From positions 115,405,942-115,469,941 of the forward strand of contig NC_090380.1 in NCBI RefSeq assembly GCF_036365525.1: DNA of 64,000 bases, in the 5' to 3' direction. The notes below the pieces were generated by a model. The model worked only from the letters and a program-made list of their open reading frames with translations. It made no database searches and was not told the origin of the DNA. The position numbers and the translations under genes were made by a program. The stretch's first letter is position 1, and each line of letters starts with the position of its first letter. The DNA comes from Heterodontus francisci (Eukaryota). Below are positions 6,111 through 58,426 of the stretch, piece by piece.

Positions 6111-6969
6111 TGATTAGTCTGGGTCTCTGGATTACTAGTCCAGTAGCATAACCACATATTCGGGGTTTTAGAGAATGGACAGACTGAACAATAAGGAGAG
6201 GCGAGTTGAGCATTTAGCAGAGAGTTGGACCGATTGGTAAAAGATTAAAGAGAGTTTGCTAAAGGCTCAATCAAAAATGATGGTTTTGAGGAGGTTTGTT
6301 GAATTAGTGAGGGAAGGAGCGAGATGGAGCAGTTTGGAAGGTGAGAGGATAATTCTAGAGGGCGCGACCAAGGTGACTGAAAGCTCTGCAACAGATGAAC
6401 ACTGATCGGGAGAATGCACAGCATCCCATAGTTAGAGAGCTGGAAGGCATAGGCTGAGAGGCAAAGCTGAGAGAGTTTGTAGAGGCAAGGTGACTCAAGC
6501 TTGGAATGGAATTTTAGATTTGGTGGTTTATAAACAGGAAGCCAGTGGAGATGGGTAACGACGTGGGTTCTGTTGGAGTCTCTGTCGACCTCATACACTT
6601 ATCACTTTCTTTCCCAGCACATCAAAATGATGGAAGTCCTTACAGCCCTCAACTTCCCTTTCCTCCTGCAACCAAAGGCTTTTAAAAACCAATTTTGGCA
6701 ATACCACATCAAACCTTTCTGATTGACCTCATTTTCTCTTTCCAGCTTTGTTAAGGGAGCCATTAGGAGCCCAGGCAGTTTACCTCACAGGAACAAGATG
6801 AGGCCATTCAGCCCCTCAAGTCTGTTCTGCCAGCCAGTTATATCACAACTGACTTGTATCTCAACTCCATTTGCATGCCATGGTTCCGTAGCCATTGTTA
6901 GCCTTGCCTAACAAAATTATAGGTAATGAAAGCTCATGTTTCTCAATGGAAACAAATCGAGTAAAAGTT

Positions 6970-7150
6970 CATTGCACCTGGCTGGTGACGTGCAGCTGAC
7001 TCCCAGGAGAGATAGGGAGCATCAGGAGGATTCCGAGGGAAGCGATTTTCCCAATCTCCAGACTCAGAGGCAGTCGCAGTAAATAGGAACAAACTCACTC
7101 CCACACCAGTCAGCAGCTGAGTGACAGAAACTCTCAGTGAGAAAACTGGA
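6970..7150 (+). promoter_or_regulatory. Orphan copy of the array promoter block with no recognisable exon behind it
   Basis: CACCTG...GATAGGGAG...TTTTCCCAATCTCCAGACTCAGAGGCAGTCGCAGTAAATAGGAACAAAC...CAGAAACTCTCAGTGAGA matches the cassette promoters. Confidence 0.6.
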
Positions 7151-7474
7151 CAGGATCTATAACCGATGGTTTCCCCCACGTGCTAAAGACTTCCCCCCCC
7201 CCCCCACAGGACCATTGCACCCTGCTTTGACCCCACAAACATCTAGCAGGGAAGACCAGCACACAACACAAATCGGACTAAGTTGCCTGAGCTTTGGAAA
7301 CTGCACACCAGGGGCTGGTTGGTGGGCGTGGGGGGGAGTGGGGGGTAGGGGCAGTGGGGCAGGAGTATTTATATCGTCGGGCCACAGGCTGGACACTCCT
7401 GGTCCAGAAACCGAAGGCAAGATTTTAACTTACTCCAACCTTTCACTTATACCAAGTTAAAAATCAGTTCCTAT

Positions 7475-18730: not shown

Positions 18731-20475
18731 GCGTGTATCCCGAGCCTTTGTCAATTTGCCAACCAGTGGAACCTATTGTTCTCTTGAAAAACCTTTCGGA
18801 ATTTTGAAGAACTTTGAAAATGTGACCTGCAGAGATCTGAATTCTAATTCCATATGCATTTAACACACTCGTGTTGTGTTAGAAGAACCTAAGTTCTGGA
18901 ATTCGCGCTCTGAACCTCTCCGCCTCTCTACCTCTCTTTCCTCCTTTAAGACGCTCCTTAAAACCTATCTATTGACCAAGCTATTCGTCACCTGCTATAA
19001 TATTGCATTCGGTGGCTTGGTGTCAAATCCATAGCACTCCTGTGAAGTGCCAGTTGTGTTAAAGGTGATATATAAATGCAAGTTCTGCTTATTTAACCCT
19101 TTACCTGAAACAGGCAAAATAGCAGCAGACAGTATTTCCTTTGGAATAGGTAATGTGACACTGCGGGAGCATACAGTAAAAGTGGTGGTTTTTATTTTAA
19201 AGGGGAAAATAGCATGGCTTTTATTGGTGTATGAATTTGCATTCCGAGCACAGAGCTTTAAGTGATGAGTGCTGTTATCAGGAAATTGGGTGTCGGAGGT
19301 CAGCAAACCCTGAATGATTTTCTGCCTGAAAATTAATGGGTAAAAAATTGTGAGGGATGCACTAACATCTGTGCCTGAATTCCTGATGTGTATCCCGTCA
19401 TGTGAGGCTCCGAACTGGAATTGCTAATTTATAAAATCTGTCCCAATGTGCTTTAATAACTGCGAAATCAATCAAGTGGCAGACTGCGAGAACTGCCCAT
19501 ATTCAGCCTCTAAAAAGAAAACCCCTGTGATGAAGGGTGGAAACTGGGACATGGAAACAAATCGATGGTATGATGCTTGGCTCCTGCTGAAGAGAGTGGC
19601 CAGTCTGCGTTAAATTAGATGAGCAGGAGCTCGTTCCCACACTAGAGGTTCAGCAGCAACATCAGATGGGATGCAGGCCTCGGGAGGGAAGCAGGGTGCA
19701 AGTGTGGGAGAGAGTGACAGCACGAGCTGGGAGCAGTGGGAGGTTCCAGTGTGGTGAGAGCAAATGACAGTCCCAGTATGATCTGGCGGCAATGGAAAAG
19801 AGAGTCCCAGCACAGATTTGCCGTAATAGGGATACATATTTTCAGAACAGCAGGAGTCCCAATGTGGACTACCATTCTGGGACGTTTTACAGGCGCTATA
19901 TAAATGCAAGTTCTTGTTTTTGATGATGCAGCATGAATTGGGGGCGGGTGGGGAAAAAAATTGCACTGTGGCATCTGGATAAATAATTTTGAAACAACTA
20001 AACAATCTGAGTTAAGGATCCACATTTGCCCACAATTTCTTCTTGAAAAATGATGGGAAACATCCCTTCATTTTTTTTGTATAATCTTCCGCTGTACAGA
20101 TGATAGAACATTGGGCACAACTCTCAGCGTAACACACCTGCCACTGCACTTTTATAACCACTTGTCGCAGATCAATATTGAGGGCTGTTTTGAACCTGTT
20201 GGCCAGCTTTTGATGGTTGTCTAGGACGGTGTGTTAGGGAATATAGATCTGGGTACAGGGTGGGAACCTGTGACTAGGACTACTGCTCAGCTGGGGCATA
20301 AAAACTAGCATGGACAGGTTGGGCTGAATGGCCTCTTTCCATGCTGTTATTTCTCTGTAATTCTATACATGCATAAAATGTTAACATTCAGTCCAGGGCT
20401 ATTGTACCCCATGAGACTCCTCCATTCAGCTTCTATATCTGGTCGTATCATGAACCTAGCAATTAAGTACTTACT

Positions 20476-20590
20476 GCAGAGAGACTCCTCCCCTGGGCCG
20501 GTGATGACAGGTGAGAGAAGGTTAGGCCGCAGGGTTCTGGGTAAAGCTATTCCCCAACCTACAGACTCCGAGCCGGTTTCAGTAACAAAC
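20476..20590 (+). promoter_or_regulatory. Cassette 1 promoter-like block
   Basis: TCCCCTGGG, CAGGTG, TATTCCCC, CAGTAACAAAC. Confidence 0.55.
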
Positions 20591-20729
20591 ACACTCGCAC
20601 AAACAAGCCAGCATCACAGACAGCAAACAGAACCTCTCTCTCAGGCAGGAACCTGCGACCATCAAAATCTCTTGCTGTCGATTCAGATCTTTTAGAGGGC
20701 GTTTCCATAGCAACACAAAGTGAGGAGCC

Positions 20730-20898
20730 ATGTGGCGGTACAGGGAAGTGTTTCGCACCTACTTCGAGGTGCAGATGTGCTGTGAAATGTTCAAGGTCGC
20801 TCCCCTGGTGCCCGTGAAGCGTCCGGTGCTGAAGCTGAGAGACAGAACGTCTAATTTTGGACCAACAGTCAGCACCGTGTCTCCTTTCAATCATGCAG
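20730..20898 (+). CDS. Variable first exon 1 (MWRYREVFRTYFEVQMCCEMFKVAP...PFNHA-G)
   Basis: GAGCCATG start, VQMCCxxF motif, phase-1 donor AG|GTAAC. Confidence 0.7.
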
Positions 20899-21369
20899 GT
20901 AACTCTTTGTCTCGTGCTCCTGCCTTCCTGTGGTGTAGATGATAGCTGTCCCGTCCAGTCTCCTCTAGCCCTTTTCATTCTTGTCTGTTCACGTTGATGG
21001 GGAAGATTTCACAAAGGGCCTGTGATGATGCCTAACACAAGTCAGCTAATTTTAGTGTCAGGAAGTCACCAAAGAGAGACACAGAGCAGAGCCTGATTAT
21101 TTGTCTCCATCCAGCCTCCATACACGTGCACTGTCAGCAGAGGTCACTGGATGACAATCGGAAGCGGAAACCTTTCGATCTTTTCTCCTTACCTTGCCAG
21201 CACAGCAGGTTCACGTCCAATGTTATTGCCCTGACTCAGATCAGTGAACCCTGGGACCAGACATCGATTCAAAGACCTTTAATACATAGAGTGCTGTTCA
21301 CGACCTCAGGACATCCCAAAGCGCTTTGCAGCCAATGAAGTACTCTTGAAGTGTGGCCAGTGATGTCAT

Positions 21370-21460
21370 GTCGACACTGACCCAGGGGAGCTTCACCTCA
21401 CAGACCGGGTGCCTCTGTACAGTAAACCTATAAAGATTAGCGGAGACAATCGGCTAAACA
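21370..21460 (-). repeat. Inverted, patchwork copy of the cassette 2 promoter/upstream region inserted in a SINE
   Basis: Reverse complement matches 22381-22514 with internal deletions. Confidence 0.8.
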
Positions 21461-22470
21461 TCCCACAATCAGCAATGTGATAAATGACCAATTAAACTGC
21501 TTTAATGATGTTGGTTGAGGCATAAATATTTGCCCTGGGCCATCGGGAATAACTCCCCTGCTCTTCTTTGAATAACGCTGCAGGATCTTTTACATCCAGC
21601 TGAGAGGGCAGACGAGGCCTTGGTTTAACATCTCATCCGAAAGACAGCACCTCTGACAGCACCGTAGTGGGTATAAAATGATGAGGGACCGAGACAGAGT
21701 GGATAGGAAAGGCCTATTTCCTTTAGCAGTGAGATCAATAACCAGGGAACTTAGATTTAAAGTAATTGGTGAAAGGATTGGGGTAAGTTGAGGAGAAACC
21801 TTTGCACCCTGATGCTGGCGGGGGTCTGGAATTCACTGCCTGAAAGGGTGATAGAGGCAGAATCACTCACCACATTTAAAAAGTACTTGGATATCACTTG
21901 AAGATCCCTAACCTGCAGTGTTACAGACCAGAACTGGAAAGTGGGATTAGACTGGAGCTCTTTTTCAGCTGGCACGCACGCGGTGGGCCGAATGGCCTCC
22001 TTCAGTGCCATATATTTTCTATGTTTCAGTGAACCTTTTGGATTTTTATGATAATGCGATAGCTTCATGGGCACTTTTACTGATCATGGCTTTTCATTTC
22101 TAAATTTTTTAAGCTGAATTCAAACTTTCATGGTGGGATTCTGGACTCATGTTGATGACTATTCCAGGTCTCTGGGCTACTGGTACAGTAACATAACTAC
22201 ACTGCATTGGATTCAATGGGGAAGCAAGGTTATTCCTTCTTTCTCATACTTTTAAAGTCTTTACATATTTATTTGTTAACACTGGTATCCTTCAAATAAT
22301 TAAACAATTCCATTGGTGAATCTCATCCTTTGGAGACCTGTCCAAGTAGGCCAAACTTGAGCCTGCTAGAATTTAATTGATGTTTAGCACAGATGTTGTT
22401 CATGCCGATTCTCTCCGCTATTTCCAATCTTTATAGGTTCACAGATTCAATTAAAGGTTTACTGTACAGA

Positions 22471-22600
22471 GGCACCTGGTCTGTGAGGTGAAGCTCCCCT
22501 GGGTCAGTGTCGACAGGTGAGAGAAGGATAGGGAGTGGCAGGAGAGGTTCTGGGTAACGATATTCCCCAGCCAGTCCCAGTTTAGTAAATAGGAACAAAC
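22471..22600 (+). promoter_or_regulatory. Cassette 2 promoter-like block (consensus type)
   Basis: GGCACCTGGTCTGTGAGGTGAAGCTCCCCTGGGTCAGTGTCGACAGGTGAGAGAAGG...TATTCCCCAG...GTAAATAGGAACAAAC. Confidence 0.65.
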
Positions 22601-22773
22601 TCTCTCACCCACACAAGACAGTGTCACAGAGAGTGGCAGAGAATCTCACTGAGAGCGACAGGCAGAGTTCAAACAGTTTGGCTGTGTATCTGAGCCAGAC
22701 GTTTGGAAATCTCTCGCTGTTGTTTGGAAGGACCACTGGGAGAATTTCTACATCAAGGCAAATGAAAGCAGCC

Positions 22774-22948
22774 ATGTTTATGTTTATGTCCATGGGTGTG
22801 ATTCGAACAATGTGGCAGGTGCATTTATGCTGCAAAGAATTCAGTGCCACTCCGTTGATTCCTGATGATCAAGTTGTGGTGAAGCGCAGAGACAGACTGT
22901 CTAATTCTGTGCCCACAGTCAGCACTGTGCCTCTCTTTGATAATGCAG
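22774..22948 (+). CDS. Variable first exon 2 (MFMFMSMGVIRTMWQVHLCCKEFSATP...PLFDNA-G)
   Basis: GCAGCCATG (in-frame ATG also at 22762), CC motif, donor AG|GTAAGT. Confidence 0.75.
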
Positions 22949-26060: not shown

Positions 26061-26099
26061 TCTCTCGCAAGCTCCGTAATGAAACCAAGGACCCTAGTG

Positions 26100-36430: not shown

Positions 36431-36670
36431 AGTTTCCATTCCCACCTCCAGGGGGACCCCAAAGATTCATCCCAAAGGTGCAAATGCATCCACAAACACG
36501 CACACACTGACAGATAATATGCACTGCAAACACATGCAGAGTAGCGATGCTTGAGGTTCTCAATAGGGTCTTTACTGAATCTCCCTCATGTGCCCACAAG
36601 ACCTTGCTATTCTGGATCAGTGCTTCCCCCTCCTGCCAAACACTGGTATTATTAATCCAGGAATTATAGA

Positions 36671-36788
36671 GGGACACCTGCTGTATGAGGTGAAGCTCCC
36701 CTGGGTCAGTGACAACAGGTAAGAAAAGAATAAGGAGAGGTTCTGGGTAATGATATTCCCCAGCCAGTCTCACTAAATAGAAACAAAC
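36671..36788 (+). promoter_or_regulatory. Cassette 3 promoter-like block
   Basis: CACCTG, TCCCCTGGG, CAGGTA, TATTCCCCAG, TAAATAGAAACAAAC. Confidence 0.6.
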
Positions 36789-36921
36789 ACTCCCACACAC
36801 TCACAGCCCAGTGTCACAGAGAGCAGCAGAAACTCTCATTGTGAGAGACAGGCAGAGTGCTTTTGAGAGAGATCTTCAAAAACTTTCGCTGTTGGTTGGA
36901 AGGACGATTTGGAGAGATTGC

Positions 36922-37099
36922 ATGGCAGCCTGGCTAGGAGGAATGATGCATGAGGAATTGTTTAACGTGATCTGGCAGGTTCAGATGTGCTGCAAAGTAT
37001 TCAATGCCTTGCCACTGAATACCAAGAGTAATGTTGTGCTGAGGCTCAGAGGGAAGGTATCGAACTCCGCACCCACCGAGCCTCCCTTTGACGTCGCAG
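36922..37099 (+). CDS. Variable first exon 3 (MAAWLGGMMHEELFNVIWQVQMCCKVFNALP...PPFDVA-G)
   Basis: ATGs at 36922/36943, CC motif, donor AG|GTAAC. Confidence 0.72.
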
Positions 37100-38190
37100 G
37101 TAACTGTGTTCTACTCGTGTGTTCCTGCAGTGTAACTGGTAACTGTGCTCGTCAGTCTGTTTGATTTATCCCAGATCTTCTGTCTCCCCAGCCCAGCCCC
37201 TCCCTCACCAATATCTGCTCTGCTCTGGTACCTCCCTTAACAGATCATTCTTCATGCTGTCCCGATCAGTTGCCCGCCTTACACCTTCTGTGGACTCAAG
37301 CTCATCCAGATCACTGCTGTCCATATCCTAACTCTCTCCGCGTTGTATTCACCAATCACCTCTCTGATTGTACCTACATTGCACCTGCCCCCTGTACCGA
37401 TATTGACTCCAGGTCCAGAATGCCTCAGTTTTAAAATTCTCAACCTTCTTTTCAAATCCCTCACATGACCCCACCCTTCCGTATCTCTGCGACATCCTCC
37501 ATCCCACAACCCTCGGAGATATCTGCGCTCCTCCAATTTTGGCCTCTTGAAAATCCCCAATTTTCATTGTCCCACAACTGCTAGCTGTGCATTCAGCTGC
37601 CTGGGCCCTAAGCTCTGGAATTCCCTCCCTAAACCTCTCTGCCTCTCTACCTCATTTCCCTCCTTTAAGACGCTCCTTTAAACCTACTTTTTTGGCCAAG
37701 CTTTTGGCCACCTGCCCTAATATCACCTTACGTTGCTCATTGTCTAGTTTTGCTTTACAGAGCTCCTGTGAAGTGCCTTGCACTGTTTTATCACCTTAAA
37801 GGAACTATATAAATACAAGATTTTGTTGTTGATTGATTCCACCACCTTCTTAACCAACATAACTCAATGAAATCGTGTATTTACCAACTGAGCCATGGGG
37901 AGGGTTTCCCGTGATTTTTAAGAAAATAAACGATTTGCTTTTATTCTGACTGACTGGTTTCACTGGAAGAAATTAATGGGGCCAAAAAAGTGAAATTACA
38001 GATTTTCACAAAATGACACTATTAATATATGACTTTGCAGGGTTATAGGAAAGGCTGTGGAATGGATTGGGTTGTTTTTCTACAGTAAAGTTGCTACATA
38101 AATGCAAGTTCTTGTTGTTGTAGCAGACCCACATTGCTTTTTTAAACATCACTATTGATAATTCAACAGTTAAAGGCTGTACTGCACAGA

Positions 38191-38330
38191 GGCAGCTGAG
38201 TTGTGAAGTGGATCTCTCCTGGGTCAGGGATAACAGGTGGCAGAAAGGAACTACAGCAACAAATGGATCTTAGGTGAAGTTATTCCCCAATCTACGATGC
38301 CAGTCCCAGAATGCGTAAATAGGAACAAAC
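38191..38330 (+). promoter_or_regulatory. Cassette 4 promoter-like block
   Basis: CAGCTG, TCTCCTGGG, CAGGTG, TATTCCCC, GTAAATAGGAACAAAC. Confidence 0.6.
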
Positions 38331-38509
38331 ACTCTGGAACAAACACAGACAAGCCAGCAGTGGACAGCGGCAGAAACTCTCACTGAGAGAAGCTGAGTTT
38401 GCAACAGGCAAGGTGCCTGTGTGTGTGAGAGAGAAAGACCTTTCGAGACCTGCCGCTGTTTGGAAGGACTATTTGGAAAGTTCCCACCGCACTGCGAGCA
38501 AGGGGAGCC

Positions 38510-38678
38510 ATGCTTATATACGGGGACCTCATTGAGATGTACTGGCGTGTGCACATGTGCTGTAAACTGTTCAGTGCCACTCCCATGGATCCCAAGGTGG
38601 GTCCTACACTGAGACTGAGAGCGAGAGGGTCTGCTTCTGAAGCTGCAGTCACCAAGGTCCCTCCCTTTGATCAAACAG
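38510..38678 (+). CDS. Variable first exon 4 (MLIYGDLIEMYWRVHMCCKLFSATP...PPFDQT-G)
   Basis: GAGCCATG, CC motif, donor AG|GTAAT. Confidence 0.72.
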
Positions 38679-39456
38679 GTAATGGTTCAGTTCTCCTGTG
38701 CCTTAGGATCATAGAATCACAACACTGAAGGAAGCCATTTGGCCCATCGTGTCTGTGCTGGCTCTTTGAAAGAGCTGTCCAATTAGTCCCTTCTACACCA
38801 CCCACATGCCCCTCCCCCCCAAGTTAGGCTCTTTGCGTATATAAACAACGGAGCGTTACCCCTGCTCCGGGTCCCTGCATAAGAGCCAACCTCCATATTT
38901 AACCCCCTCAATTCTCTTGGAAGGAACCTTTTCTTCTTGAGAATTTTGTCTGGGGAATGGAACAGGAATGCTGTTTAATTAATGCCGAAGGTTGTGTTAG
39001 ATTGCTATCGGGATGCTGTCACTTGATTTCCACTGGGATCCGGACCAAGGTTTGACAGAATGGCCGTTGTGTTTCCTTTGCTTGTGAGATCAGTTGCAGA
39101 GAGTTGCTGACCTTATATTGTTCTGCATTTATTGTAGTGAGGCTGCCCAGGTGCAGGAAGGGCGAGCGTTGGAAAATGTGTTCCCACTTCTGGAAGAAAT
39201 GAATGGGGACAACAGAGTGAAATTACAGATTTTCATAGAAAATTCTATTCATTAAAAAGCCACAAAATGACAATTTTAATGTTGTCCTTATGTACTTTAT
39301 TTTTATAGAACAATTTTTCAAAGAATTAGCACACCCTATCAGGAAAGGAAGCACAGCACAAACGATTCTCAGCCTATCTTAATTCAATGTGTTCAGCCTT
39401 GCCCAGAGACCATTTGTGCAATCGCCAATGTTTTAGTTCAAGGTTTACAGTACAGA

Positions 39457-39587
39457 GGCACCTGGTCTGTGAGGTGAAGCTCCCCTGGGTCAGTGTCGAC
39501 AGGTGAGAGAAGGATAGAGAGCGGCAGGAGGGGCTCTTGGTAAAGATATTCCCCAGTCAGTCCCAGTTTCAGTAAATAGGAACAAAC
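39457..39587 (+). promoter_or_regulatory. Cassette 5 promoter-like block
   Basis: Consensus block, near identical to 51551-51679 and 59332-59460. Confidence 0.65.
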
Positions 39588-39730
39588 ACTCTCACACACA
39601 GACACACATACACAAGCCAGCGTCACAGAGAGCGGCAGGAACATTCACTGACTCAGCAACAGGCGGTTTGCCCATGTAAGACAGCCCTTTTGGAAATCGT
39701 CTGCTACTGGTGGGGAGGACATTCCCTGGC

Positions 39731-39923
39731 ATGGTGTTAATGGGCACAATTATGATGTTCATGTACAGCGAGGCATTTCGTACCCTCTACGAGGTGCACC
39801 TGTGTTGCAAAGTCTTCAATGCCGTGCCCATGATTCCTGATAAACAGCTGGTGGTGAAGCGGAGAGAGAGAGTGTCTAATTCTGGGCCCACAGTCAGCAC
39901 CATGCCTCCCTTTGACAAGACAG
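39731..39923 (+). CDS. Variable first exon 5 (MVLMGTIMMFMYSEAFRTLYEVHLCCKVFNAVP...PPFDKT-G)
   Basis: Several in-frame ATGs (39731, 39752), CC motif, donor AG|GTAAC. Confidence 0.75.
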
Positions 39924-41694: not shown

Positions 41695-42060
41695 TGCATT
41701 TATATAGTGCCTATCCTCAGGACATCCCAAAGTGCTTCACCGCAGGGTAACTACTTTGAAATGTAGTAAGGGATGTTATGTTGGGAATGTGACAGCCAAT
41801 TAGTGCACAGCAAGCTCCCACAAACAACAATGTGATAAATGATCAAATAATCAGTTTTAGTGAGGGATAGATATTAGCTCAGGATGCATTGGAGAATTCC
41901 CCCGCTCTACAAATTACTGCCATGGGATCTTTTACATTCACCTGAGAGGGCTGACGGGGTCTCAGTTTAATATCTCATTTCAACTAACACACTGTTGTGT
42001 AACTAATTTCTACAGAATGTCAGAATTATCAATCCAGCAATTAAATGTGTATTATCCTGA

Positions 42061-42199
42061 GGCAGCTGGTCTGTGAGGTGAATCTCCCCTGGGTCAGTGA
42101 CGACAGGTGTGAGAAGGATAGGGAGTGGCAGAAGGATTCTGGGTGATGCTTTTCCCTGATCTACAGACTCAGAGGCAGTTGCAGTAAACAAGAACAAAC
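42061..42199 (+). promoter_or_regulatory. Cassette 6 promoter-like block (subtype A)
   Basis: CAGCTG, TCCCCTGGG, CAGGTG, GTAAACAAGAACAAAC. Confidence 0.65.
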
Positions 42200-42355
42200 T
42201 CACTCTCTCTCACACAAGTGAGCATCACAAGAATTAGCCAGGACATCCAGACTGGTTCTATATTAAGAGGCTCGCTTGAGGCCACCATATTGAAGGATTT
42301 CAGAAAAGTTGGGAGGATTTATACTTTAGATTCCACGTTGGTGTGAAGCAGAGAA

Positions 42356-42530
42356 ATGATGAGGCTTCTGGATCTGCAGTTGCTTTACTTATTCCCGAGG
42401 CTGCAGATGTGCTGTCGCCTTTTCAACTCTGGTCCGATCCTTTCCAATGATCAACTTAGGCAGAGTATCAGAAGCACTGTACGAAAAGCAAAAACCGAGC
42501 TTAGTACAGAGCCTCCTTATGCTGATGCAG
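42356..42530 (+). CDS. Variable first exon 6, subtype A (MMRLLDLQLLYLFPRLQMCCRLFNSGPILS...EPPYADA-G)
   Basis: ATG, CC motif, donor AG|GTAAC. Confidence 0.72.
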
Positions 42531-43066
42531 GTAACTATTGTGTCCACGTGTGCTGTACCTTATCATAATGTTGGGATTCTATTTCCCTCTTGTCTTGTCC
42601 TTCTGCTGAAGGCAGTGACAGTTGGGGGCAGCGTTTCACAGGTACCAGCAGCCCGCTGTTTACCACAAACCAAATTCTCACCTAGACAGTTAACAGCTAT
42701 TCAACCAACTGGAGCATCATAGCAGAACTCAGCACTAACTTTTCCAATGTGCTGACCCTCACAGCAGTCGGAGTTAATGATTGGATCAGCAACTGTGTAT
42801 TTTTATGCTTCCGTGTCGATAGAGAAACTGAGGTTAATGACAGCAACCCTTCCTCCACCTCCCCTCATCAGCACAGATCAGGGACCAAGCCTTGGTCTTG
42901 CTTGTATTGTATAGTTGAGTGTCACAGGGAGCAGTGCATCTACACATTGGGCGTGATCCATGCTGGTGAAGTTTCAGGTTAAATTTGTTGAATGCTTGTT
43001 TCAGATCTATAATCAGTTCCCCTGAAATGCTGGTGAAATTAATCTAATAAAGGTTTACTTTACAGA

Positions 43067-43189
43067 GGCACCTGGTCTGTGAGGTGAAGCTCCCCTGGGT
43101 CAGTGTCAACAGGTGAGAGAAGGATAGATGGAGGGCTCTGGATAAAGATATTCCCCAGTCAGTCCCAGTTTCAGTAAATAGGGACAAAC
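43067..43189 (+). promoter_or_regulatory. Cassette 7 promoter-like block
   Basis: Consensus block. Confidence 0.6.
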
Positions 43190-43374
43190 GCTCTCTCACA
43201 CACACACACACAGGAGCCACAGAGAGTGGCAGAAACTCTCACTGAGAGAGACAGACCGGGTCAGCAACAGGCAGTGTGCTGCTGCCCGTGTCTGTGAGAG
43301 ACTGTGAAAATCTCCCGCTGTTGTTTAGAAGGATGTTTGCGAGAGTTTCCACTGCAGGGTGAATGAGCTGAACC

Positions 43375-43541
43375 ATGTTTGTGTTTGAAGCAGTGATTCA
43401 CACATTGTAGGAAGTGCACGTGTGTTGTAAACTGGTCATTGGATCGTTAGTGATTCCTGATGACCAACTTGTGGGGAAGCTCACAGAGAGTGTCTGATTC
43501 TATACCCACAGTCAGCACCATGCCACCTTTGAACTCAATAG
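43375..43541 (+). pseudogene. Variable exon 7, subtype C, defective
   Basis: MFVFEAVIHTL* (TAG at 43408), later frameshift; donor AG|GTAAT retained. Confidence 0.7.
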
Positions 43542-45123
43542 GTAATTGTTGTGTTTGACTCCTGTGTTCCTGTGTTGTAGCTGAGAGATGAGCAGTATCC
43601 CACAAAATTTCTTGCCTTTTTTGATTGAAGCTGGTGATTTATAAATTCCTCTAGCTCTACAAAGCTCTGTGATTCCGTGCTCTTCCAATTCTGGCCTCTT
43701 GCATTTCCCTGATTTTCATTACTCCAGAATAGACAGTCATATCTTGATCTGCCTGGGCCCTAAGCTCTGGAAATCCCTCCCTAAACCACTCCGCATCACT
43801 ACATCTCTCTCCTGCATTAGGGTTCACCTTAAAACCTACTTTTTTATTACGTTTTTTGCCACCTGTCCTAATATCTCCTCGGTGTCAAATTTTGTTTGAT
43901 AATCTCTCCTGTGAAGCACCTTTGGGCGTTCAAGTATATTAAAGTTGCTACTTGAAAGCAATTGTTGTTGCTGCACAGTGCTGTTGGATTTATTTACCAA
44001 GGTTCTGTGGAATTATCTGCAGTGGTGACTTTTGTTCGAAGAGTTGAAATAGCATGGTGATTTGAGGGAAGTGTTTAAAATTATGAAGTGATTAGTGACT
44101 GAGGCAGAGTCAACATGTAAGAAGGGCTGGAAAGGTATGTGAAAAAATGGGGAATATCAAGATATAGGATCAGGATGGGAACATGGGATTAGGAATACTG
44201 CTCCTGTGGAGGGTAAACACCAACTCGGATTGGTTGGGCCAAACGGCCTTTTTCATTGTTGTAATTTTTAAAAATTCTTTCATGGGATGTGGGCGTCGCA
44301 GGCCAGGCCAGCATGTATTGCCCATTCCCAATTGCCCTTGAACTGAGTGGCTTGCTAGGGCATGTAAGAGTCAACCACATTGCTGTGGATCTGGAGTCAC
44401 ATGTAGGCCAGACCAGGTAAGGACAGCAACAATCGACAATGGTTTCATGGCCATCATTAGACTGGCTTTTAATTCCAGATTTATTAATTGAATTCAAATT
44501 CCACCTTCTGCTGTGGTGGGATTTGAACCCATGTCCCCAGAGCAATACCTGGGTCTCTGGGTTACTAGTCCAGTGACAATACCAGTATGCCACCGCCTCC
44601 CCCTAATTTGTAATTTGCGTGCGATTCTCTGAGAGTGAAATTTGTGTTTGCGAGTTTTATCCTTTGTTTTCAAGAAACAAAAATAATTGTGAAATTTAGA
44701 ACAGAAATTCCATTCATTAAATAAAAAAAGAGCTTGCATTTATATAGCCCCTGTCACAATCACAGGAAGTTTGCTTCTGAAGTAATTTTTGTAACTGTTG
44801 TAATGTAAGAATCGCGCACCTAATTTGGGCACAGCAAGATCCCACAAACAACAGTGTGCCAAATGATCAGATAATCTGTTTTAGTGTTGGCAGATGTGGG
44901 ATAAATATTGGCCAGGTCACCAGAGAGAACTCTCCCGCTCTTCTTCGAAGTAGTGCCATGGGATCTTTTACATCCACCTGAGCGGGCAGACGGGCCATGG
45001 TTTAATGTCTCATCTGAACTTGCCCATTACTGTGCATGTGGGAAATCCTGTCTCAAGCTGTAACTATGGTTTCCATGGTTTGCCTACATCTTTAATCTAG
45101 CAATTAAATGTTTACTATTCAAA

Positions 45124-45207
45124 GGCAGCTGGTGTGTGAGGTGAATTTCCCCTGGGTTAGTGACGACAGGTGAGAGACTCAGGCAGTTGCTGTAAACAGG
45201 AACATAC
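45124..45207 (+). promoter_or_regulatory. Cassette 8 promoter-like block with internal deletion
   Basis: CAGCTG, TCCCCTGGG, CAGGTG, GTAAACAGGAAC; middle TTCCCC segment missing. Confidence 0.55.
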
Positions 45208-45388
45208 TCATTCTCTCTCTCACACACACACAAGTGAACAACACAAGAATTACCCGGGACATCCAGACAAGTTCTGCATCATGAGGCTCGCTTGCTGAAT
45301 ATACATTGAACGACTTCAGAGAAGTTGCATCATTGGTTAGGAGGACGTTATTTTGGAAGGTTTCACAGCAGGAGGAAGGAGAGGAGTG

Positions 45389-45560
45389 ATGAGACTTCTG
45401 TATCTTGAGTTGGGTTACTTGTTCTCCGAACTGCAGATGTGCTGCCAGATGTTTGGCTCCACTCCGATCCTTTCCAGAGATCAAATTAGGCAGAGTATTA
45501 GAAGCACCGTGCCTAAAGCAAAGACCAAGCTCAGTACAGAGGCTCCTTACGACCAGACAG
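45389..45560 (+). CDS. Variable first exon 8, subtype A (MRLLYLELGYLFSELQMCCQMFGSTPILS...EAPYDQT-G)
   Basis: ATG, CC motif, donor AG|GTAAC. Confidence 0.72.
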
Positions 45561-46119
45561 GTAACTGACATGTCCTCGTATGCTCATTATAATACTGGGA
45601 TTCTTTATCCCCCCCCCCCGCCCCCGTCTTATCCTTCTGCTGAAGGCAGTAACAGATGGGGACAGGGTTCCACAGGTGCCAGCAACCCTCTGTTACCCAC
45701 AAACCCAAATCCCATTTCTGCACCTAGACTGTGACCCGGCTGTGCAACTGTGGGGAGCATCACAGTTGAGCTCAACATGTCTTCATCCAATGTGCAAGCT
45801 CTTGCACTTTCCGGCAGGGGCTAGAGGATTAATGATCAGGAGCAGGAACCAGAGAAACATGTCATGCTTATGAGTCAATAGGGAAACTGAGGTTAATGAT
45901 AACAACCCTGCCCCCACCTCCCCTCATCAGCACAGATCAGGGACCAAGCCTCAGACTTGCTTGTATTGTACAGTTGAACGTCACAGGGAGCAGTGCATCT
46001 ACACACTGGGAGAATCCGGGTTGCTGAGGTTTACAGTTAAATTGTTTATTTCAGATCCGTAATCAGATGCATCAAATGCTGGTGATATTGATCTAATAGT
46101 TAAAGGTTTACTGTCCAGG

Positions 46120-46481
46120 GGCACCTGGTCTGTGAGGTGAAGCGCTCCTGGGTCAGTCTCTACAGGTGAGAGAAGGATAGATGGAGGGCTCTGGGTAGGG
46201 CTGGATCCATGGGAAACCCCTCGAACTGTATCGTTAATATTTTCATTTGCTGTAAATGTAAAACTGTAATTGGCGTGACAATTGTGAAATGGAAGGGTTG
46301 TGAAGAAACTCATGATAGTATTGAAGGAAACTGATCTCCCTTGCAATGTTTGTATTTTTTGGTGCTGTTTGAAACTGTTTGGCAATGTAATTTTTGCAGA
46401 TTTTTATGAATAAAGTATATTTTGGAAATAAAAAAAAAGATATTCCCCAGTCAGTCCCAGTTTCAGTAAATTGGAACAAAC
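46120..46481 (+). promoter_or_regulatory. Cassette 9 promoter-like block split by a retroposon tail
   Basis: Consensus halves flank the insert at 46198-46436. Confidence 0.55.
46198..46436 (+). mobile_element. Poly(A)-tailed retroposon 3' end (L1/Tx1-like)
   Basis: AATAAA at 46409 followed by A-tail; absent from paralogous promoters. Confidence 0.65.
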
Positions 46482-46660
46482 TCTCTCACACACATAAGCC
46501 AGTGTCACAGAGAGTGGCAGAAACTCTCAGTGAGAAACAAACAGAATCAGCAACAGGCAGTGGGCTGCTGCCCGTGTCTGTGAGAGACTGTGGAAATCTC
46601 CAGCTATTGTTTAGATTGGCGTTTGCGAGAGTTTCCACTGCAGGGTGAATGAGCTGAGCC

Positions 46661-46811
46661 ATGTTTGTGTTTGAAGCAGTGATCCACACATTGTATGAAG
46701 TGCACATGTGTTGTAAACTGTTCAACGCCTCTTCAGTGATTCCTCACAACCATCTTGTGGGGAAGCACACAGAGACGGTGTCTGACTCTGAGCTATCTAC
46801 TAACCCAACAG
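46661..46811 (+). CDS. Variable first exon 9, subtype C, shortened but in frame (MFVFEAVIHTLYEVHMCCKLFNASS...STNPT-G)
   Basis: GAGCCATG, CC motif, donor AG|GTAAA. Confidence 0.6.
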
Positions 46812-47756
46812 GTAAATGTTGTGCTTTACCCCTGTGTTCCTGTTGTAGTTGAGAGCTGTGCATCCCTCAATTTCTTGCCCATTTTTGTCTGAAATCCTTC
46901 ACATTATCTCCTCCAGCCCTACAACCTTCCAAGATCTCTACACTCCTCCAATACTGGTCTCTTGTACATCCCCCAATTCCTTCACTCCACCACTGGTGAC
47001 CATGATTCCAGCTGCTTGGATCCTAATCTCTGGGAATCCCTTACTAAACCTCTCTCTCCTCCTTTATACTTCATAAAACCTACCTCTTTGACCAGGCTTT
47101 TAGTCACCTTTCGGAATGTCTCCATATGAGACTCAGTTTATCAAATACTGTTTGATAACACTCCCTGTGAAGCACCTTGGGACATTTTACAATGATGAAG
47201 GTGCTATATAAATGCAAATTGTTGTTACTGCTACTGAATTAACACTAATTACAGATCCAAAACTCCACCCAAGTTGGACCCACCAGACGGGGGGTCCAAC
47301 CTGGGATCTTGTTGGATTGCAGAGCTCAGTTGCACACATCCTGTGGTGGATATAATGTTGGAGCTCTTTGCATACAGTGGGTCAGGCTACACAGGGGCCA
47401 TGAATCTGGCCTTCTGTGGGTACATGTGTCAGCTGTAGCTCTGTGGGTAGCGCTTTTGCCTTTGTGTTAGCAGTTTGTGGGTTCAAATCCCATTCCAGTG
47501 ACTTGCATTCTTAGTCCAGGCTGACTCTCCCAGCAAATTCATTTCTGTCGGCTGTAAAGTTGCTGAGCTCAGGGGAGTTGTGAGATAAATGCAAGTTTGT
47601 CCATCCTTTCATGGTGAACAAGACAGCAAACAGGCCGGTGGGATTGTCAGTGAGGGGCTGCACCAGCTGCTTTGTTGTGTACAATGTGTATCTAGACTGG
47701 TTGAAGTTATTTTTAATCAAATTCACTCTCTGGTAATGAAGAGTTTACTGTCTGCA

Positions 47757-47880
47757 GCCACCTGGTCTATGACAGACTCTTTCCCAGGGGCAGTAACAGG
47801 TAAGAGAAGGTGAGGCTGAGGTAGCAGAGTTCTGGGTAAAACTATTCCCCAATCTACATCCTCAAACCCAATTTCAGTGA
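47757..47880 (+). promoter_or_regulatory. Cassette 10 promoter-like block (divergent)
   Basis: CACCTG, TCCCAGGGG, CAGGTA, TATTCCCC. Confidence 0.5.
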
Positions 47881-47971
47881 AGTCAGAGAGCGGCAGGAAC
47901 TCACTGATACAGTAGTGTGTGTGTGGCTGTTTGCAAGCACTAGTTTAGTGCTGTGACCAGTGGGAGCCACG

Positions 47972-48137
47972 ATGATGTACATGCAATTCATCGATATATT
48001 TATCGAGGTCCAGATGTGCTGTGTGCTTTTCAACACCCCTCCAATCCTCTCGGAAAAGCAGCTTGTACAGAGGCTGCGAGAGAAAGTGTCTATTGCTAAA
48101 ACCAGAGGCGGCTCCGCAGATCCTTACGACCGGACAG
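47972..48137 (+). CDS. Variable first exon 10, subtype B (MMYMQFIDIFIEVQMCCVLFNTPPILS...DPYDRT-G)
   Basis: ATG, CC motif, donor AG|GTAAC. Confidence 0.72.
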
Positions 48138-48675
48138 GTAACTCGTGTGCTGCAGCTCATCATAAATGTGGGCTTGTATATCCCTCCTGTCTTGATCTTC
48201 TGCTGAAGGCAGTGATGGATGGGGACAGGGTTCCACAGCTGCCAACATTAGTTACGCGCAAATTCCCATCTCCGCACCTGGACGTGTTTTAACAGGCTAT
48301 TGAACCAAGGGGAGCATCACAGCTGAGCTCAACAGTGTCCTCATTCGATGTTCAAACTCTCGCACTTTCCGGAAGGTATGAAAGGGTTAATGAACAGGAA
48401 CCGTAGAAGATTTTCCTAAGCTTCCGTGACGACAGGGAAAGTGAGGTTAATGATAGCACCCTGCCCCCACCTCACCTCAGCAACACAGATCAGGGACCAA
48501 GCCTCAGCCTTGCTTATATTGTACAGTTGAGTGTCACAGGGAGCACTGCATCTTCACACTGGGAGAATGTGTTACTGAAGATTAGGTGTAAGATACTTGA
48601 GTGTTTGTTTCAGATCTGTAATCAGTTCCCCTGAAATGCTGGTAATATTAATCTAATAAAAGTTTACTGTCCAGG

Positions 48676-48798
48676 GGTACCTGGTCTGTGAGGTGAAGCT
48701 CCCCTGGGTCAGTCTCTACAGGTGAGAGAAGGATAGATAGAGGCCTCTGAGTAAAGATATTCCCCAGTCAGTCCCAGTTTCAGTAAATAGGAACAAAC
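48676..48798 (+). promoter_or_regulatory. Cassette 11 promoter-like block
   Basis: Consensus block. Confidence 0.6.
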
Positions 48799-48979
48799 TC
48801 TCTCACACACACAAGCCAGTGTCACAGAGAGTGGCAGAAACTCTCAGTGAGACAGAGACAGGATCAGCAACAGCCAGTGGGCTGCTGCCCGTGTCTGTGA
48901 GAGAGACTGTGGAAATCTCCCGTTATTATTTCGAAGGGCATTTGCGAGAGTTTCCACTGCAGGGTGAATGAGCTGAGCC

Positions 48980-49064
48980 ATGTTTGTGTTTGAAGCAGTG
49001 CACGTGTGTTGTCAACTGTTCAACGCCTCTTCAATGAGCACCGTGCCACATTTTAACCCAACCA
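48980..49064 (+). pseudogene. Variable exon 11, subtype C, two in-frame deletions (MFVFEAVHVCCQLFNASSMSTVPHFNPT)
   Basis: Aligns to subtype C; donor weakened to CCA|GTAAT but still phase 1. Confidence 0.6.
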
Positions 49065-50509
49065 GTAATTGTTGTGCATTATCCCTGTGTTCCTATTGTA
49101 GCTGAGAGCTGTGCAGGTGATTCCATATCCCTCAGAATTTCTTGCCTCTTTTGACCGACGCTGGTGATTTATAAATTCATCCGGCTCTACAAAGGTCCGG
49201 GACCTTTCCGCTCCTCCAATTCTGGCCTCTTGCACATCCTCAGTTTTCATTATCCCAGAATTGGCAGCCGCATCTTCAGCTGCCTGGGCCCTAAACTCTC
49301 AAATTCACCTCCTGAAACTCTCCGCATCTGTTCTCCTTTGAGACGCTGCTTAAAATCCATCTTTTCACAAAGTTTTTGGTCACCTGCCCTAATATCTACT
49401 TGATGTGGTTCAGTGTTTAATCTTGTTTGATAATCGCTTCCGTGAAGTGCCTTAGCATGTTTCAGTATAATTAAAGGTGCTATATGAATGCAATTGTTGT
49501 TGCACAGTGCTGTTGGATTTGTTTACCAAGGTTGTGTGGAATTATCTGCGCTGGTAACTATTGTTAGAAGAGATGAAATAGCCCGGTGATTTGAGGGAAG
49601 TGTTTAAAATTATGAAGTGACTAGTGACTGAAAGGGTCAACATTTAAAAAGAGGTTGGAGAGGTGTGTGAAGGAATGGGGAATATTGAGATATGGGATCA
49701 GGGTGGGAACATGGGATTAGGAATACTGCTCCTGTGGAGGGTAAACACCAATTCACATTGGTTGGGCCGAACGGCCTTTTTCAGTGAAAGTGAAATTTGC
49801 GTTTGTGAGTTTTATACTTTGCTTTCAAGGAACAAAAACAATTGTGAAATTTACAACTAATTTCATTCATTCAATTGGCAAATTTAAAGCAGAAAAAGAA
49901 AATTGCATTTATATAGCACCATGTCACGCCCTCGGGACGTCTCAAATTGTCTTAGAGGCAAGGAAGTGCTTTTGAAGTTCAGTCACTGTTGTAATGTAGG
50001 GAATCACAGCAGTTAATTTGGCAGGACAAGGTCGCATAAAGAGATAATCTGTTTGAGTGAGGGATAAATATTGGCCAGGATACAAGAGAGAATTCCTGTG
50101 CACTTGTTCAAATTAACATAGGAACACAAGAATTAGGAGCAGGAGTAGGCCATTTAGTCCCTTGAGCTTGCTCTGTCATTCAACTAGATCATGGTTGGTC
50201 TGATTGTGGCCTCCATTGTATTTTCCTGCCTTCTCCCAATAACCATTGTAGATCAAAAATCTGTCCAACTCAGCCTTGAATATATTCAATGACCCACCCT
50301 CCACTGCTCTCTGGGGGAGAGAATTCCAAAGATTGACGACCCTCTGTGGGATCTTTTACATCTACCTGCGAGGACTGATGGGCCTCAGTTGATGCCTCAT
50401 TTGAACTAACACACTATTGTGCTTGGGGGAAAGGCCTCTCTCAAGCTGTAACTAATTTCTACAGAATGCTGACATTATTAATCCAGCAATTAAGGGGTTA
50501 CTATCCTGA

Positions 50510-50646
50510 GGCAGCTGATCTGTGAGGCGAGTCTCCCCTGGGTCAGTGACGACAGGTGTGAGAAGGATAGGGAGTGGCAGGAGGGTTCTGGGTGATGATT
50601 TCTTGATCCACAGACTCAGAGGCAGTTGCAGTAAACAAGAACAAAC
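50510..50646 (+). promoter_or_regulatory. Cassette 12 promoter-like block (subtype A)
   Basis: CAGCTG, TCCCCTGGG, CAGGTG, GTAAACAAGAACAAAC. Confidence 0.6.
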
Positions 50647-50817
50647 TAATTCTCTCTCACACAAGTGAGCATCACAAGAATTACCTGGGACATGCAGACT
50701 GGTTCTGTATCAAGAGGCTAACTTGCTGTCCCTGTATTGAAGGATTTCAGAGAAGTTGTGCATTAATTGGGAAGACATTGTTAGAAAGTTTCCACGTTAG
50801 TGTGAAGGAGAGGAGCG

Positions 50818-50989
50818 ATGAGGCTTCTCGATTTGACACTAGGTTACTTGTTCTCTCAGCTGCAGACGTGCTGTTACTTATTCAACTCTGGTCCGATCCT
50901 TTCCAAGGATCAACTTGGGCAAATTATCAGAAGCACTGTGCGTAAAGCAAAGCCTGAGCTCAGTACAGAGCCTCCTTATGATGATACAG
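50818..50989 (+). CDS. Variable first exon 12, subtype A (MRLLDLTLGYLFSQLQTCCYLFNSGPILS...EPPYDDT-G)
   Basis: ATG, CC motif, donor AG|GTAAC. Confidence 0.72.
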
Positions 50990-51550
50990 GTAACTATTGT
51001 GTCCTCGTGTGCTGTAGCTCATTGTAATGTTGAGATTTTAGATCCCGGGTGTCTTGTGCTTCTGCTGAATGCAGTGGCTGATGGGAACGGCATTTCCCAG
51101 GTACCAGCAGCCCTCTGTTAGCTAAAAACTGAATTCTATCTCCGCAGCTTGACAGTTAACTGGCTATTTAACTAAGGGGATCATCACACCAGAGCTCATT
51201 GCTATCTTCATCCGATGTTCAAACTCTTGCATTTTCCAGAAGGGGTCTAAGGGTTAATGGTTAGGAATAGGAACCATAGAAGATTTTCTTAAGCTTCTGT
51301 GTCGATAGGGAAACTGAGGTTAATGATAGCAACCCCTCTCTCAACTTCTCTCATCAACACAGATCAGTGACCAAGCCTCGGCCTTGCCTGTGTTGTATAG
51401 TTGAATGTCACAGGGAGCAGTGCGTCTACACATTGGGCACAACTTGTTGCTGAAGTTTAGGTTTAAAATATTTGAATGTTGGTTTCAGATTTGTAATCAG
51501 TTCCCCTGAAATGCTGGTAATATTAATCTTGTAAAGGTTTACAGTACAGA

Positions 51551-51679
51551 GGCACCTGGTCTGAGGTGAAGCTCCCCTGGGTCAGTGTCGACAGGTGAGA
51601 GAAGGATAGGGAGCGGCAGGAGGGGCTCTTGGTAAAGATATTCCCCAGTCAGTCCCAGTTTCAGTAAATAGGAACAAAC
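51551..51679 (+). promoter_or_regulatory. Cassette 13 promoter-like block
   Basis: Consensus block. Confidence 0.62.
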
Positions 51680-51838
51680 ACTCTCACACACACAAGCCAG
51701 TGTCACAGAGAGCGGCAGAAACTCTCACTGATACAACAAGTAGTTTGTGGCTGCATGTATCTCTGGTCACAGATTGTCAAAGGCTCCCGGTGTTGGTTGG
51801 ATGGACTTTTGGGGATAGTTTCGAAAGTCTTGTGACGA

Positions 51839-52016
51839 ATGGGAGTCACGATGATGTACATGCAATTCTTTCCCTTATTTTATGAGGTGCAGATGTGCTG
51901 CGTAATTTTCAACACCTCGCCAATCCTCTCCGAAAAGCAGCTTGCACAGAGGCTGCGAGAAAAAGTATCTGTCGCTAAAAGCAGAGGCAACTCCGCAGCT
52001 CCTTACGACCGGACAG
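51839..52016 (+). CDS. Variable first exon 13, subtype B (MGVTMMYMQFFPLFYEVQMCCVIFNTSPILS...APYDRT-G)
   Basis: ATGs at 51839/51851, CC motif, donor AG|GTAAC. Confidence 0.72.
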
Positions 52017-52544
52017 GTAACTCTCGTGTCCTTGTGTGCTGCAGCTCATCGTTGTGTGGGATCCTATATCCCTCCTGTCTTGTCCTTCTGCTGAAGGAAA
52101 TGATGGATTGGGGCAGGGTTCCACAGCTACCAGCAACCCTTTGTTACCCTCAAATCCAATTTCCAGGTATACACTTGGACAGTTAACCTGCAATTCAGCC
52201 AAGGGGAGCATCACAGCTGAGCTCAACACTGTCTTCATCTGATGTCCAAACTTTACAGCAGGATTCAAAGGGTTAATGACCAGAAGCAGAAACTGTAGAA
52301 GATTTTTCTATGCCTGCATTTTGATAGGGAAACCAAGGTTAATGATAGCAGCTTTGCCCCCAGCTTACCTCATTACGTACATCAGGAACTAAACATCAGC
52401 CTTGCTTGTATTGTACAGTTGAGTATCACAGGAAGCAGTGCATCTACACATTGGGGGAGTCTGTGCTGGTGACATTTAGGGTTAAATCAGATCCTATCAA
52501 ATGTTGGTGATATTAATCTAATAGTTAAATGTTTGATATACACG

Positions 52545-52673
52545 GGCACCTGGCCTGTGAGCTGTAGCTCGCTGAATCACTGTCCACAGATTATAGACGG
52601 AGAGGGAGAAGCAGGAAACATTCTGGGAAAAGTTGTTCCTCAGTAAGATCAGTTTCAGTAAATAGGAACAAAC
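52545..52673 (+). promoter_or_regulatory. Cassette 14 promoter-like block (decayed)
   Basis: CACCTG and GTAAATAGGAACAAAC kept; EBF-like and CAGGTG motifs mutated. Confidence 0.45.
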
Positions 52674-52856
52674 TCTCTCACACACACACGAGCCAGTCTG
52701 ACAGAGAGTGGCAGAAACTCTCACTGAGAGAGAGGCAGGGTCAGCAACAGGCAGTGTGCTGCTGCCCGTGTCTGTGAGAGAGACTGTGGAGATCTGCCAC
52801 TGTCTTTTAGAAGGATGTTTGTGAGAGTTTCCACTGTGGGTTGAATGAGCTGAGCT

Positions 52857-53024
52857 ATGTTTGTGTTTGAAGCATTGATTCACACATTGTATGAAGTGCA
52901 TATGTGTTGTCAACTGTTTAACGCCCCTTTCAGTGATTCCCGATGATCAATTTGTGGTGAAGCGCGGAGAAAAAGAGTGTCTAATTCTGCGCTCACAGCA
53001 CAGTGCTACATTTTAACCAAACAG
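52857..53024 (+). pseudogene. Variable exon 14, subtype C, frameshifted
   Basis: MFVFEALIHTLYEVHMCCQLFNAP then +1 shift to TGA; donor AG|GTAAT. Confidence 0.7.
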
Positions 53025-57435: not shown

Positions 57436-58289
57436 CTATGTGGAACTATCTGGTGACTTTTGAGAAGATTACGCGGAGATCTGAGGGAAGTGTTTAAAAC
57501 TATGAAGCAGTGGGAGAGAGTGATGATAGAATGAGGGTTGTAAATGTAGGAGACTCGGGACAGAGAGCAGGAGAAACAGAAGGTTGTGAAGCTGTGGATT
57601 TCACTGCTGGCGTTAGTGATTGAAGCAGAACCCATGGCCATATTTAAGAAAAGGTGAGAGGGGTGTGTGACAGAATGGGTAATATCGGGATATGGGATCA
57701 GGGTGGGAACATGGGATTAGGAATACTGCTCCTGTGGAGAGTAAACACCGACATGGATTTATTGGGCCAAACAGCCTTTTTTGTGTTGTGTAACGCGTGT
57801 GTGATTCTCTGAGAGTGAAATTTGTGTTTGTGAGTTTTATCCTTTGGTTTCAATGAACAAAAACAATTGTGAAATTTATAACGGGAATTCCATTCATTAA
57901 TAGGCACAGGTCATATTTTGAAAAAGAAGGAACTTGCATTTATATGGCGCCTGTCACAACCTTAGGACCCGCCAAATCGCCTTACAGCCAATGAATTACT
58001 TTCTGAATTTAGTCTCTGTTGTAATGTAGGGAAATGTGGCTGCCAGTTTGTGCACAGCAAGATCGCACAAACAGCATTGTGGTAAGTGACCAAAACATCT
58101 GCTTTAGTGAGGGATAAATTTTGCCAGGGCAGCAAGGACATTTTTTACATTCACCTGAGAGGGCTGACTGGGTCTCGGTTTAATGACTCATCCAAACTAA
58201 CCTATCGGGGGAGGTCTATCTGAAGCTGTAACTAATTTCCATGGAATATCAGCATTTTCAATCCAGCAGTTAAATGTTTACTATCCAGA

Positions 58290-58426
58290 GGCAGCTGGTA
58301 TGTGAGGTGAATCTCCCCTGGGTCAGTGATGACAGGTGTCAGAAGGATAGGGAACGGCAGGAATGTTCTGGGTGATGATTTCTTGATCTACAGACTCAGA
58401 GGCAGTTGCAGTAAACAAGAACAAAC
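58290..58426 (+). promoter_or_regulatory. Cassette 15 promoter-like block (subtype A)
   Basis: CAGCTG, TCCCCTGGG, CAGGTG, GTAAACAAGAACAAAC. Confidence 0.6.

Follow-up and report, generated by a model that had tools for sequence, protein, structure and literature searches.

A conserved block, probably a shared promoter, in a tandem array of small putative first exons of the shark Heterodontus francisci

Ugt1, Gcnt2 and Ugt2a are described as tandem arrays of homologous first exons, in which each exon has its own promoter and a conserved motif recurs at a comparable place (PMC1885805). In the clustered protocadherins (Pcdh), according to the account in PMC7811963, the element that supports stochastic promoter choice combines a CTCF site and a CGCT box. 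Alternative coding first exons in arrays are rare among vertebrates, and the literature examined offers these four cases, Pcdh, Ugt1, Gcnt2 and Ugt2a.

The known targets of E2A, EBF1 and FOXO1 are single promoters, not an array. Early B-lineage promoters are reportedly co-bound by these three factors (Lin et al. 2010, as cited in PMC6719619). Co-binding of E2A and EBF in B-cell precursors is described in PMC6719619, and EBF sites have been predicted in the CD79a promoter of a dogfish (PMC4034164). Olfactory receptor promoters carry O/E plus homeodomain sites, and the apparent enrichment of Ikaros matches in them probably reflects the similarity of these matches to O/E sites, as discussed in PMC3247239.

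In Heterodontus francisci, a profile search of the window, that is, the whole 64-kb stretch of DNA analysed, recovered 19 copies of a conserved block on the + strand, numbered c1 to c19. An earlier note on this DNA had counted 18 such blocks; they are real and recurrent, and the additional copy is the degenerate c1 (6962..7175, +), behind which there is no coding exon. In the other 18 cassettes, the block is followed by a homologous exon of about 55 codons, in tandem and on the same strand. The array and the homogenisation of its promoters are solid results. The block is real and probably a functional promoter, shared by the small first exons of a shark array that seems not to have been described before. 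The explanation that we favour, with somewhat more confidence than doubt, is that the units are alternative first exons in tandem, each with its copy of the block as proximal promoter and each spliced to common exons that would lie past the end of the window.

The window is vertebrate DNA rich in repeats and contains remnants of LINE reverse transcriptase and endonuclease. It begins with a degenerate tandem repeat region (46-1423) and holds a 680-codon open LINE reverse-transcriptase frame, its longest ORF (12181-14223, +), other LINE fragments at about 2400-3600, 10400-12050, 16900-18700, 25600-31450 and 55500-57250, and a C/A-rich minisatellite with extreme strand skew and long spurious ORFs (32650-34200).

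The layout of a unit is best seen in c3, where motif and conservation analysis places the block, a putative proximal promoter, at 22450..22600 (+). The five motifs that had been reported there are present at their coordinates and in their order: the first E-box CACCTG (22473..22478, +); the EBF/O-E-like site TCCCCTGGG (22495..22504, +); the second E-box CAGGTG, starting at 22514 and equally readable as the donor-like CAG/GTGAGA (22514..22522, +); TATTCCCC (22561..22568, +), either Ikaros-like or a second EBF half-site; and GTAAATAGGAACAAAC, starting at 22585, in what we take to be a forkhead-like core, GTAAA[T/C]A plus ACAAAC, which is TATA-like in its T form (22585..22600, +). An extra core, GTTTAC on the + strand, lies 5' of the first E-box (22457..22462, -) and occurs in 8 of the 19 blocks; presumably also forkhead-like, it was absent from the earlier note. 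Behind the block come a putative 5' UTR (22601..22761, +), with no strong conserved acceptor ahead of the ATG, and a coding part (22762..22948, +) with several in-frame ATGs from 22762 and a phase-1 donor CAG/GTAAGT at its end. The proposed shared element at a near-constant distance 5' of each coding exon is borne out, the interval from forkhead site to ATG being 170-201 nt in 11/11 measured cassettes. Only 5/16 copies have an Inr-like heptamer, placed 17-18 nt past the forkhead core, and it therefore does not fix the position of the transcription start.

Across the array, the sites are present, ordered and beyond chance, but the fixed five-motif grammar proposed for the cassettes is complete in only 6 of the 19 aligned blocks (c3, c6, c8, c14, c17 and c18). 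The first E-box is kept in 17/19, with the CAGCTG form in 6 copies, CAGGT[G/A] in 17/19 (15 with G, 2 with A), the forkhead core GTAAA[T/C]A in 15/19, TCCCCTGGG in 14/19 (15/19 if the c11 variant TCCCAGGGG is counted) and TATTCCCC in 12/19, having been lost in seven. Sites are frequently lost even where the exon frame is open, and the open-frame cassettes c2, c9, c11, c13 and c16 all miss some of the supposed core sites. The two E-boxes stand 41 nt apart in 13/16 copies, and between 25 and 81 nt separate the second of them from the forkhead core. The five-site combination was found in 0/20000 dinucleotide shuffles of the c3 block and 0/393 background tiles, a 22-nt core pattern gave 16 matches against 0.00 expected, and E-box, EBF-type and forkhead cores, strongly over-represented in the blocks, occurred jointly in 4/20000 shuffles scanned with general consensus cores; most of the motif strings used here are of that kind. 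The 22-nt block core has no exact match in metagenome contigs, and metagenome and viral contigs yielded no confirmed relative among 122 and 97 candidate stretches.

As to factor names, those for the E-box, EBF and forkhead sites are plausible on the motif matches, and the Ikaros name is weak: its site is lost in 7/19 and fits O/E equally well. In c3, TATTCCCC lies outside the two best matches to V$IKRS and, like the EBF site, agrees with the V$NOLF (O/E) consensus printed in PMC3247239 at 12 of 17 informative positions; the EBF site lacks the final A, and this imperfect fit (12/17) counts against the array model. The T/C toggle in the last site favours forkhead over TATA. In three B-type blocks (42104-42112, 50553-50561 and 63077-63085), the second E-box is extended to AGGTGTGA, a putative T-box-like site.

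The second E-box admits another reading. In 12/17 copies it runs CAG/GTGAGA or CAG/GTAAGA, a form that scores 7.5-8 of 9 in a simple U1-pairing count, a level reached by about 1% of the GT sites in the window. It could thus be a splice donor. Transcripts would then begin within or ahead of the 5' half of the block, and this half would serve as a short first exon without coding sequence, joined either to an acceptor in the 3' half or directly to exons downstream. A donor would tolerate either letter of the G/A toggle, the block stays conserved ahead of dead exons, and an inverted 65-nt fragment of the block 5' half (21369..21433, -), 97% identical to c3, mutated in its first E-box and lying inside an apparent SINE-type repeat, stops one base short of the donor-like junction. 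Against this, the candidate acceptors are T-poor, the introns would measure about 58-70 nt in full-length blocks and would be shorter or absent in the deletion-bearing blocks c4, c8, c9, c12 and c18, and 5/17 copies keep CAGGTG yet have weaker +4/+5 positions; the G/A toggle would also suit ZEB-type binding. On account of the weak acceptors and introns of about 58-70 nt or less, we rank the donor reading as a rival, and a rather unlikely one.

The exons behind the blocks form open frames of about 50-60 codons in 14 of 18 cases. All units lie on the + strand. Open exons follow a block lacking the first E-box and forkhead core in c2 (20442..20898, exon 20730-20898), a block in c4 (36643..37099) and c6 (39418..39923), a divergent block in c5 (38149..38678), a divergent block without the forkhead part in c11 (47729..48137, C-type exon), and B-type blocks in c7 (42019..42530), c9 (45087..45560, middle of the block deleted), c13 (50469..50989), c16 (58249..58766) and c19 (62992..63525, sharing a 120-nt exact run with c7). 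In c10 (46079..46811), the exon is open but shortened, and the block is split by an insertion of about 238 nt with a poly(A) signal and A-tail (46198-46435), probably a truncated LINE end. The four broken exons are those of c8 (43029..43541, in-frame stop and frameshift behind an intact block) and c18 (60315..60813, in-frame stop behind an intact block), which have a stop in common, c12 (48638..49063, deletions, donor lost) and c15 (52503..53024, frameshift behind a degraded block). Every copy in the trailing A-type clade, c8, c10, c12, c15 and c18, is broken or damaged. Between 42000 and 64000, the cassettes fall into higher-order units of two to three (B-type, sometimes C-type, then A-type), with 70-80% identity across 1-2.7 kb.

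Judged by omega, the 14 open-frame exons are under purifying selection: pooled omega is 0.29, 0.37 and 0.54 in three exon groups, with only 1/28 pairs above 1, which indicates that the exons encode a selected protein. The C, C and F of a CCxxF motif are invariant across all 14. The phase-1 donor CAG/GTAA is likewise kept in 14/14, and the two fourfold-degenerate positions at the junction do not vary, against 2/55 invariant third positions in the exon. At codon 38 of the exon alignment (e.g. 42359-42529), the third base is invariant in 14/14, with Arg in 13, and may mark a splicing enhancer or another DNA-level constraint.

Behind the donor, indels are frequent in 7/7 B/C units, and in 10 A units the similarity fades out within about 90 columns. 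Alignments within the window gave no conserved local second exon behind the cassette donors, and only 5/14 open exons have a poly(A) hexamer in the 700 nt behind the donor. A Pfam scan of 172 + strand ORFs of at least 65 aa, from which the minisatellite and 167 minus-strand ORFs were left out, found a non-LINE domain in 0/172. Given the constancy of the donor, the lack of a local second exon and the few poly(A) hexamers, alternative first exons are the simplest reading, and the shared partner exon that it calls for would lie beyond 64000. Three read runs covering 36500-53300, all of one sample, guessed to be RNA and amounting to 3-4% of words, cover mostly repeats; their depth is below 2 in several block and exon bins, and no cassette donor appears among the joints listed.

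Alternatively, each cassette could be a small gene of its own, encoding either a cysteine-rich microprotein of 60-110 residues by read-through of the donor, CaaX-like in some units, or a product completed by a private exon. Read-through ends in a CaaX-like C-x-x-x-stop in 4/8 B/C exons, namely c7 (42531-42568), c13 (50990-51027), c16 (58767-58804) and c17 (59795-59832), and their small size would account for the lack of such products in protein databases. The added length varies from 2 to 56 residues, however, the read-through is disrupted in c9, c11, c14 and c19 although their exons are intact, the donor letters are invariant at silent positions, and neither a common poly(A) signal nor a conserved local exon is present in the window, so that we consider a set of separate small genes unlikely.

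We return to the promoter block and to why its copies are so alike. In a comparison of 16 cassettes (120 pairs, with c5 truncated in its block), mean pairwise identity falls from 0.80 in the blocks to 0.68 in the UTRs, 0.66 in the first 130 bases of the intron, 0.62 in the coding parts and 0.61 upstream, with 0.56 for shuffled blocks, the upstream flank being near alignment noise. The block is thus more conserved than the exons, as had been claimed, in 115/120 pairs, or 90/120 with a gap penalty. The accompanying claim that many substitutions stay within motif consensus was overstated: the toggling positions amount to 2, 4 and 2 parsimony changes, and some substitutions break the consensus. 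Parsimony steps per column are 0.95 in motifs vs 2.07 in spacers, a difference reached by 0/129 circular shifts, which points to selection on the sites, an argument that is partly circular as the motifs were chosen post hoc.

Exchange between cassettes has left its own traces. The block tree and the exon tree conflict, with c14 (51513..52016) and c17 (59293..59794, open exon), both chimeric, placed beside c6 in the first and beside c11 in the second. In c14, the informative sites favour c6 by 52:13 and then run 20:88, switching near 51745 (max-chi 63.1, 0/2000 permutations). Its block matches that of c6 at 128/129 bases, against 61-68% identity in the other four regions, 64% for the exon among them, and over the whole array the longest exact run falls in the block for 97/136 pairs. 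In the dead pair c8/c18, the block has 5/123 differences vs 35/331 in UTR and exon (p 0.04), which argues that block conservation is independent of a live exon; the low CpG content of the block may contribute to this difference. Block-limited conversion is, on these patterns, probably a cause of part of the conservation, and very strong selection on every base of the block is a less likely alternative. Under either, the 19 copies are not independent, and the within-consensus substitutions represent few events.

In a rival reading, block conservation would mainly be a side effect of gene conversion, occurring repeatedly, and of recent duplication, and the grammar would be read by chance into a homogenised sequence. 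Conversion-like tracts, spacers conserved as well and the reduction of 19 non-independent copies to few events all fit such an origin, as does the fact that c3, with five different motifs of the panel, is not exceptional (P 0.068). The slower change of the motif columns, half that of the spacers, speaks against it, and so do the match between tract edges and the motif-bearing region and the result that only 0.06% of 5000 shuffles contain the full motif set of any of 12 lineages, a panel chosen post hoc with the finding already known. We regard a mere by-product as very improbable. Weaker still, to the point where we give it almost no weight, is the proposal that the block is a dispersed repeat, a mobile-element fragment or a structured RNA: one inverted fragment and one degenerate copy are exon-less, but 19 full copies share one strand, 18 of them before the same exon family at a similar distance, the long LINE/SINE-filled stretches of the window hold no copy, and structured RNA was rejected, with no Rfam match and four RNAalifold pairs of which none is compensatory.

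The encoded module belongs to no known family in the searches made. Exon peptides matched no Pfam family at E <=0.001 (best E 0.06) and no PDB sequence at E <=10; a modest AlphaFold model of two helices (pLDDT 67, pTM 0.30) found no Foldseek match, and the ESM Atlas held nothing for c19. The N-terminal helix is only weakly amphipathic (hydrophobic moment 0.11-0.33), and a helix with a cysteine pair and a basic stretch is reminiscent of the S-acylated anchors at the N-termini of proteins like ARL13B and G-alpha-q. A HMMER search of 1.84 billion representatives returned three matches, one of them credible, chiPu_0013437 (GCC34960.1) of the bamboo shark Chiloscyllium punctatum, in which the C-type exon is thus present; of the others, one had no passing stretch and one was a tandem-repeat protein. 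Residues 1-55 of this 84-residue ab initio hypothetical protein, a single cluster member with no function assigned, match the exon family (E 9.5e-14) and are 64-67% identical to c11, c14 and c17. The alignment ends at the exon boundary, and the remaining 29 residues match nothing in the aligned exon peptides. A DUF772 assignment for it (ESM Atlas, 0.90) had no Pfam support and was dropped. Among proteins of 27-147 residues it was alone in 452 candidates, and two weak searches, one crowded with 7998 candidates and one with 12, gave no longer protein with this N-terminus. Annotated shark isoforms might be expected if the array were expressed in commonly sampled tissues, and clustering could hide them. 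Neither the array nor chiPu_0013437 is described in the literature searched, mostly papers available without subscription and without their supplements.

In the alternative-first-exon reading, bHLH, EBF/O-E family and forkhead factors would bind the block, transcription would start just behind it in one cell lineage, and each transcript would be spliced from its cassette donor to exons used in common, located 3' of the window. One protein core would thereby gain a choice of N-termini of about 55 residues with an invariant CCxxF, a module that is probably an S-acylated membrane anchor or a partner-binding one. Selection and gene conversion would keep the promoters alike, and the exons would undergo birth and death.

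For the lineage, B-lymphoid use is the leading candidate, at something short of an even chance, with olfactory or other neuronal use and any other use each possible to an equal and lesser degree; the sequence fits B-lineage and olfactory use alike. The stochastic promoter choice suggested earlier finds no support here: the promoters are near-identical, and no CTCF-like site occurs in the 19 blocks, where the best stretches have 3-4 mismatches of 13 to a general CTCF core, at varying places. CGCT is missing from both strands of the c3 block. Co-expression is the simpler prediction from near-identical promoters, and co-expression or graded competition is likelier than one choice per cell. A shark diversity system, in which at least 13 live, selected N-terminal modules would serve one shared protein from conversion-homogenised EBF/bHLH/forkhead promoters without CTCF sites, each B cell or olfactory neuron using one or a few, is a speculation that we judge improbable.

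Set beside described single promoters, the block resembles those of E2A/EBF1/FOXO1 B-lineage targets in its predicted E-box, EBF-type and forkhead cores within 130 nt, and differs from early B-lineage promoters in that octamer and Runx cores occur in 0/19 blocks and an Ets core in only 4. With the olfactory receptor promoters of PMC3247239 it shares O/E-like sites, one or two in number, TAAT/AATT cores that many blocks have upstream, and a seeming Ikaros site that could instead be O/E; TAATTR is found in 6/19 blocks, and matches to published homeodomain strings are weak. Here, however, the exon is not a receptor, and the main text of that paper does not mention forkhead. Antigen-receptor segments were considered and rejected, since the window holds six weak RSS-like hits, one in the c3 exon and none recurring across cassettes; the scanned + strand ORFs contain no Ig Pfam domain. 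This compact promoter exists in 19 natural versions that differ by lost and exchanged sites, and these offer a test set for EBF/bHLH/forkhead logic in a cartilaginous fish.

Among arrays, the locus shows the marks of variable first exons, with tandem homologous exons, a common donor phase and a conserved element at a similar distance. As in Pcdh (PMC7811963), this element stands at about the same distance before the start codon of each variable exon and conversion probably acts within the array, but there is no CTCF-like site, the exons are tiny and no cadherin domain is encoded (no Pfam match at E <=0.001), and a Pcdh-type system was rejected on the missing site and domain. As in Ugt1, Gcnt2 and Ugt2a in the account of PMC1885805, tandem first exons in one reading frame each follow their own, here putative, promoter, accompanied by pseudogenes, relics and duplication of multi-exon units. 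Theirs, however, are unusually large, with a signal peptide and a known domain, and lead to shared exons that are only inferred here, whereas the exons of this apparently unannotated array, under purifying selection and with a bamboo-shark relative, hold about 170 nt of coding sequence for an N-terminal module of no known family. Little conversion is reported for Ugt1 in the same source, unlike the apparent exchange of promoter blocks here, and where Pcdh homogenises its exons (PMC7811963), this array seemingly does the reverse, homogenising its promoters while its exons diversify.
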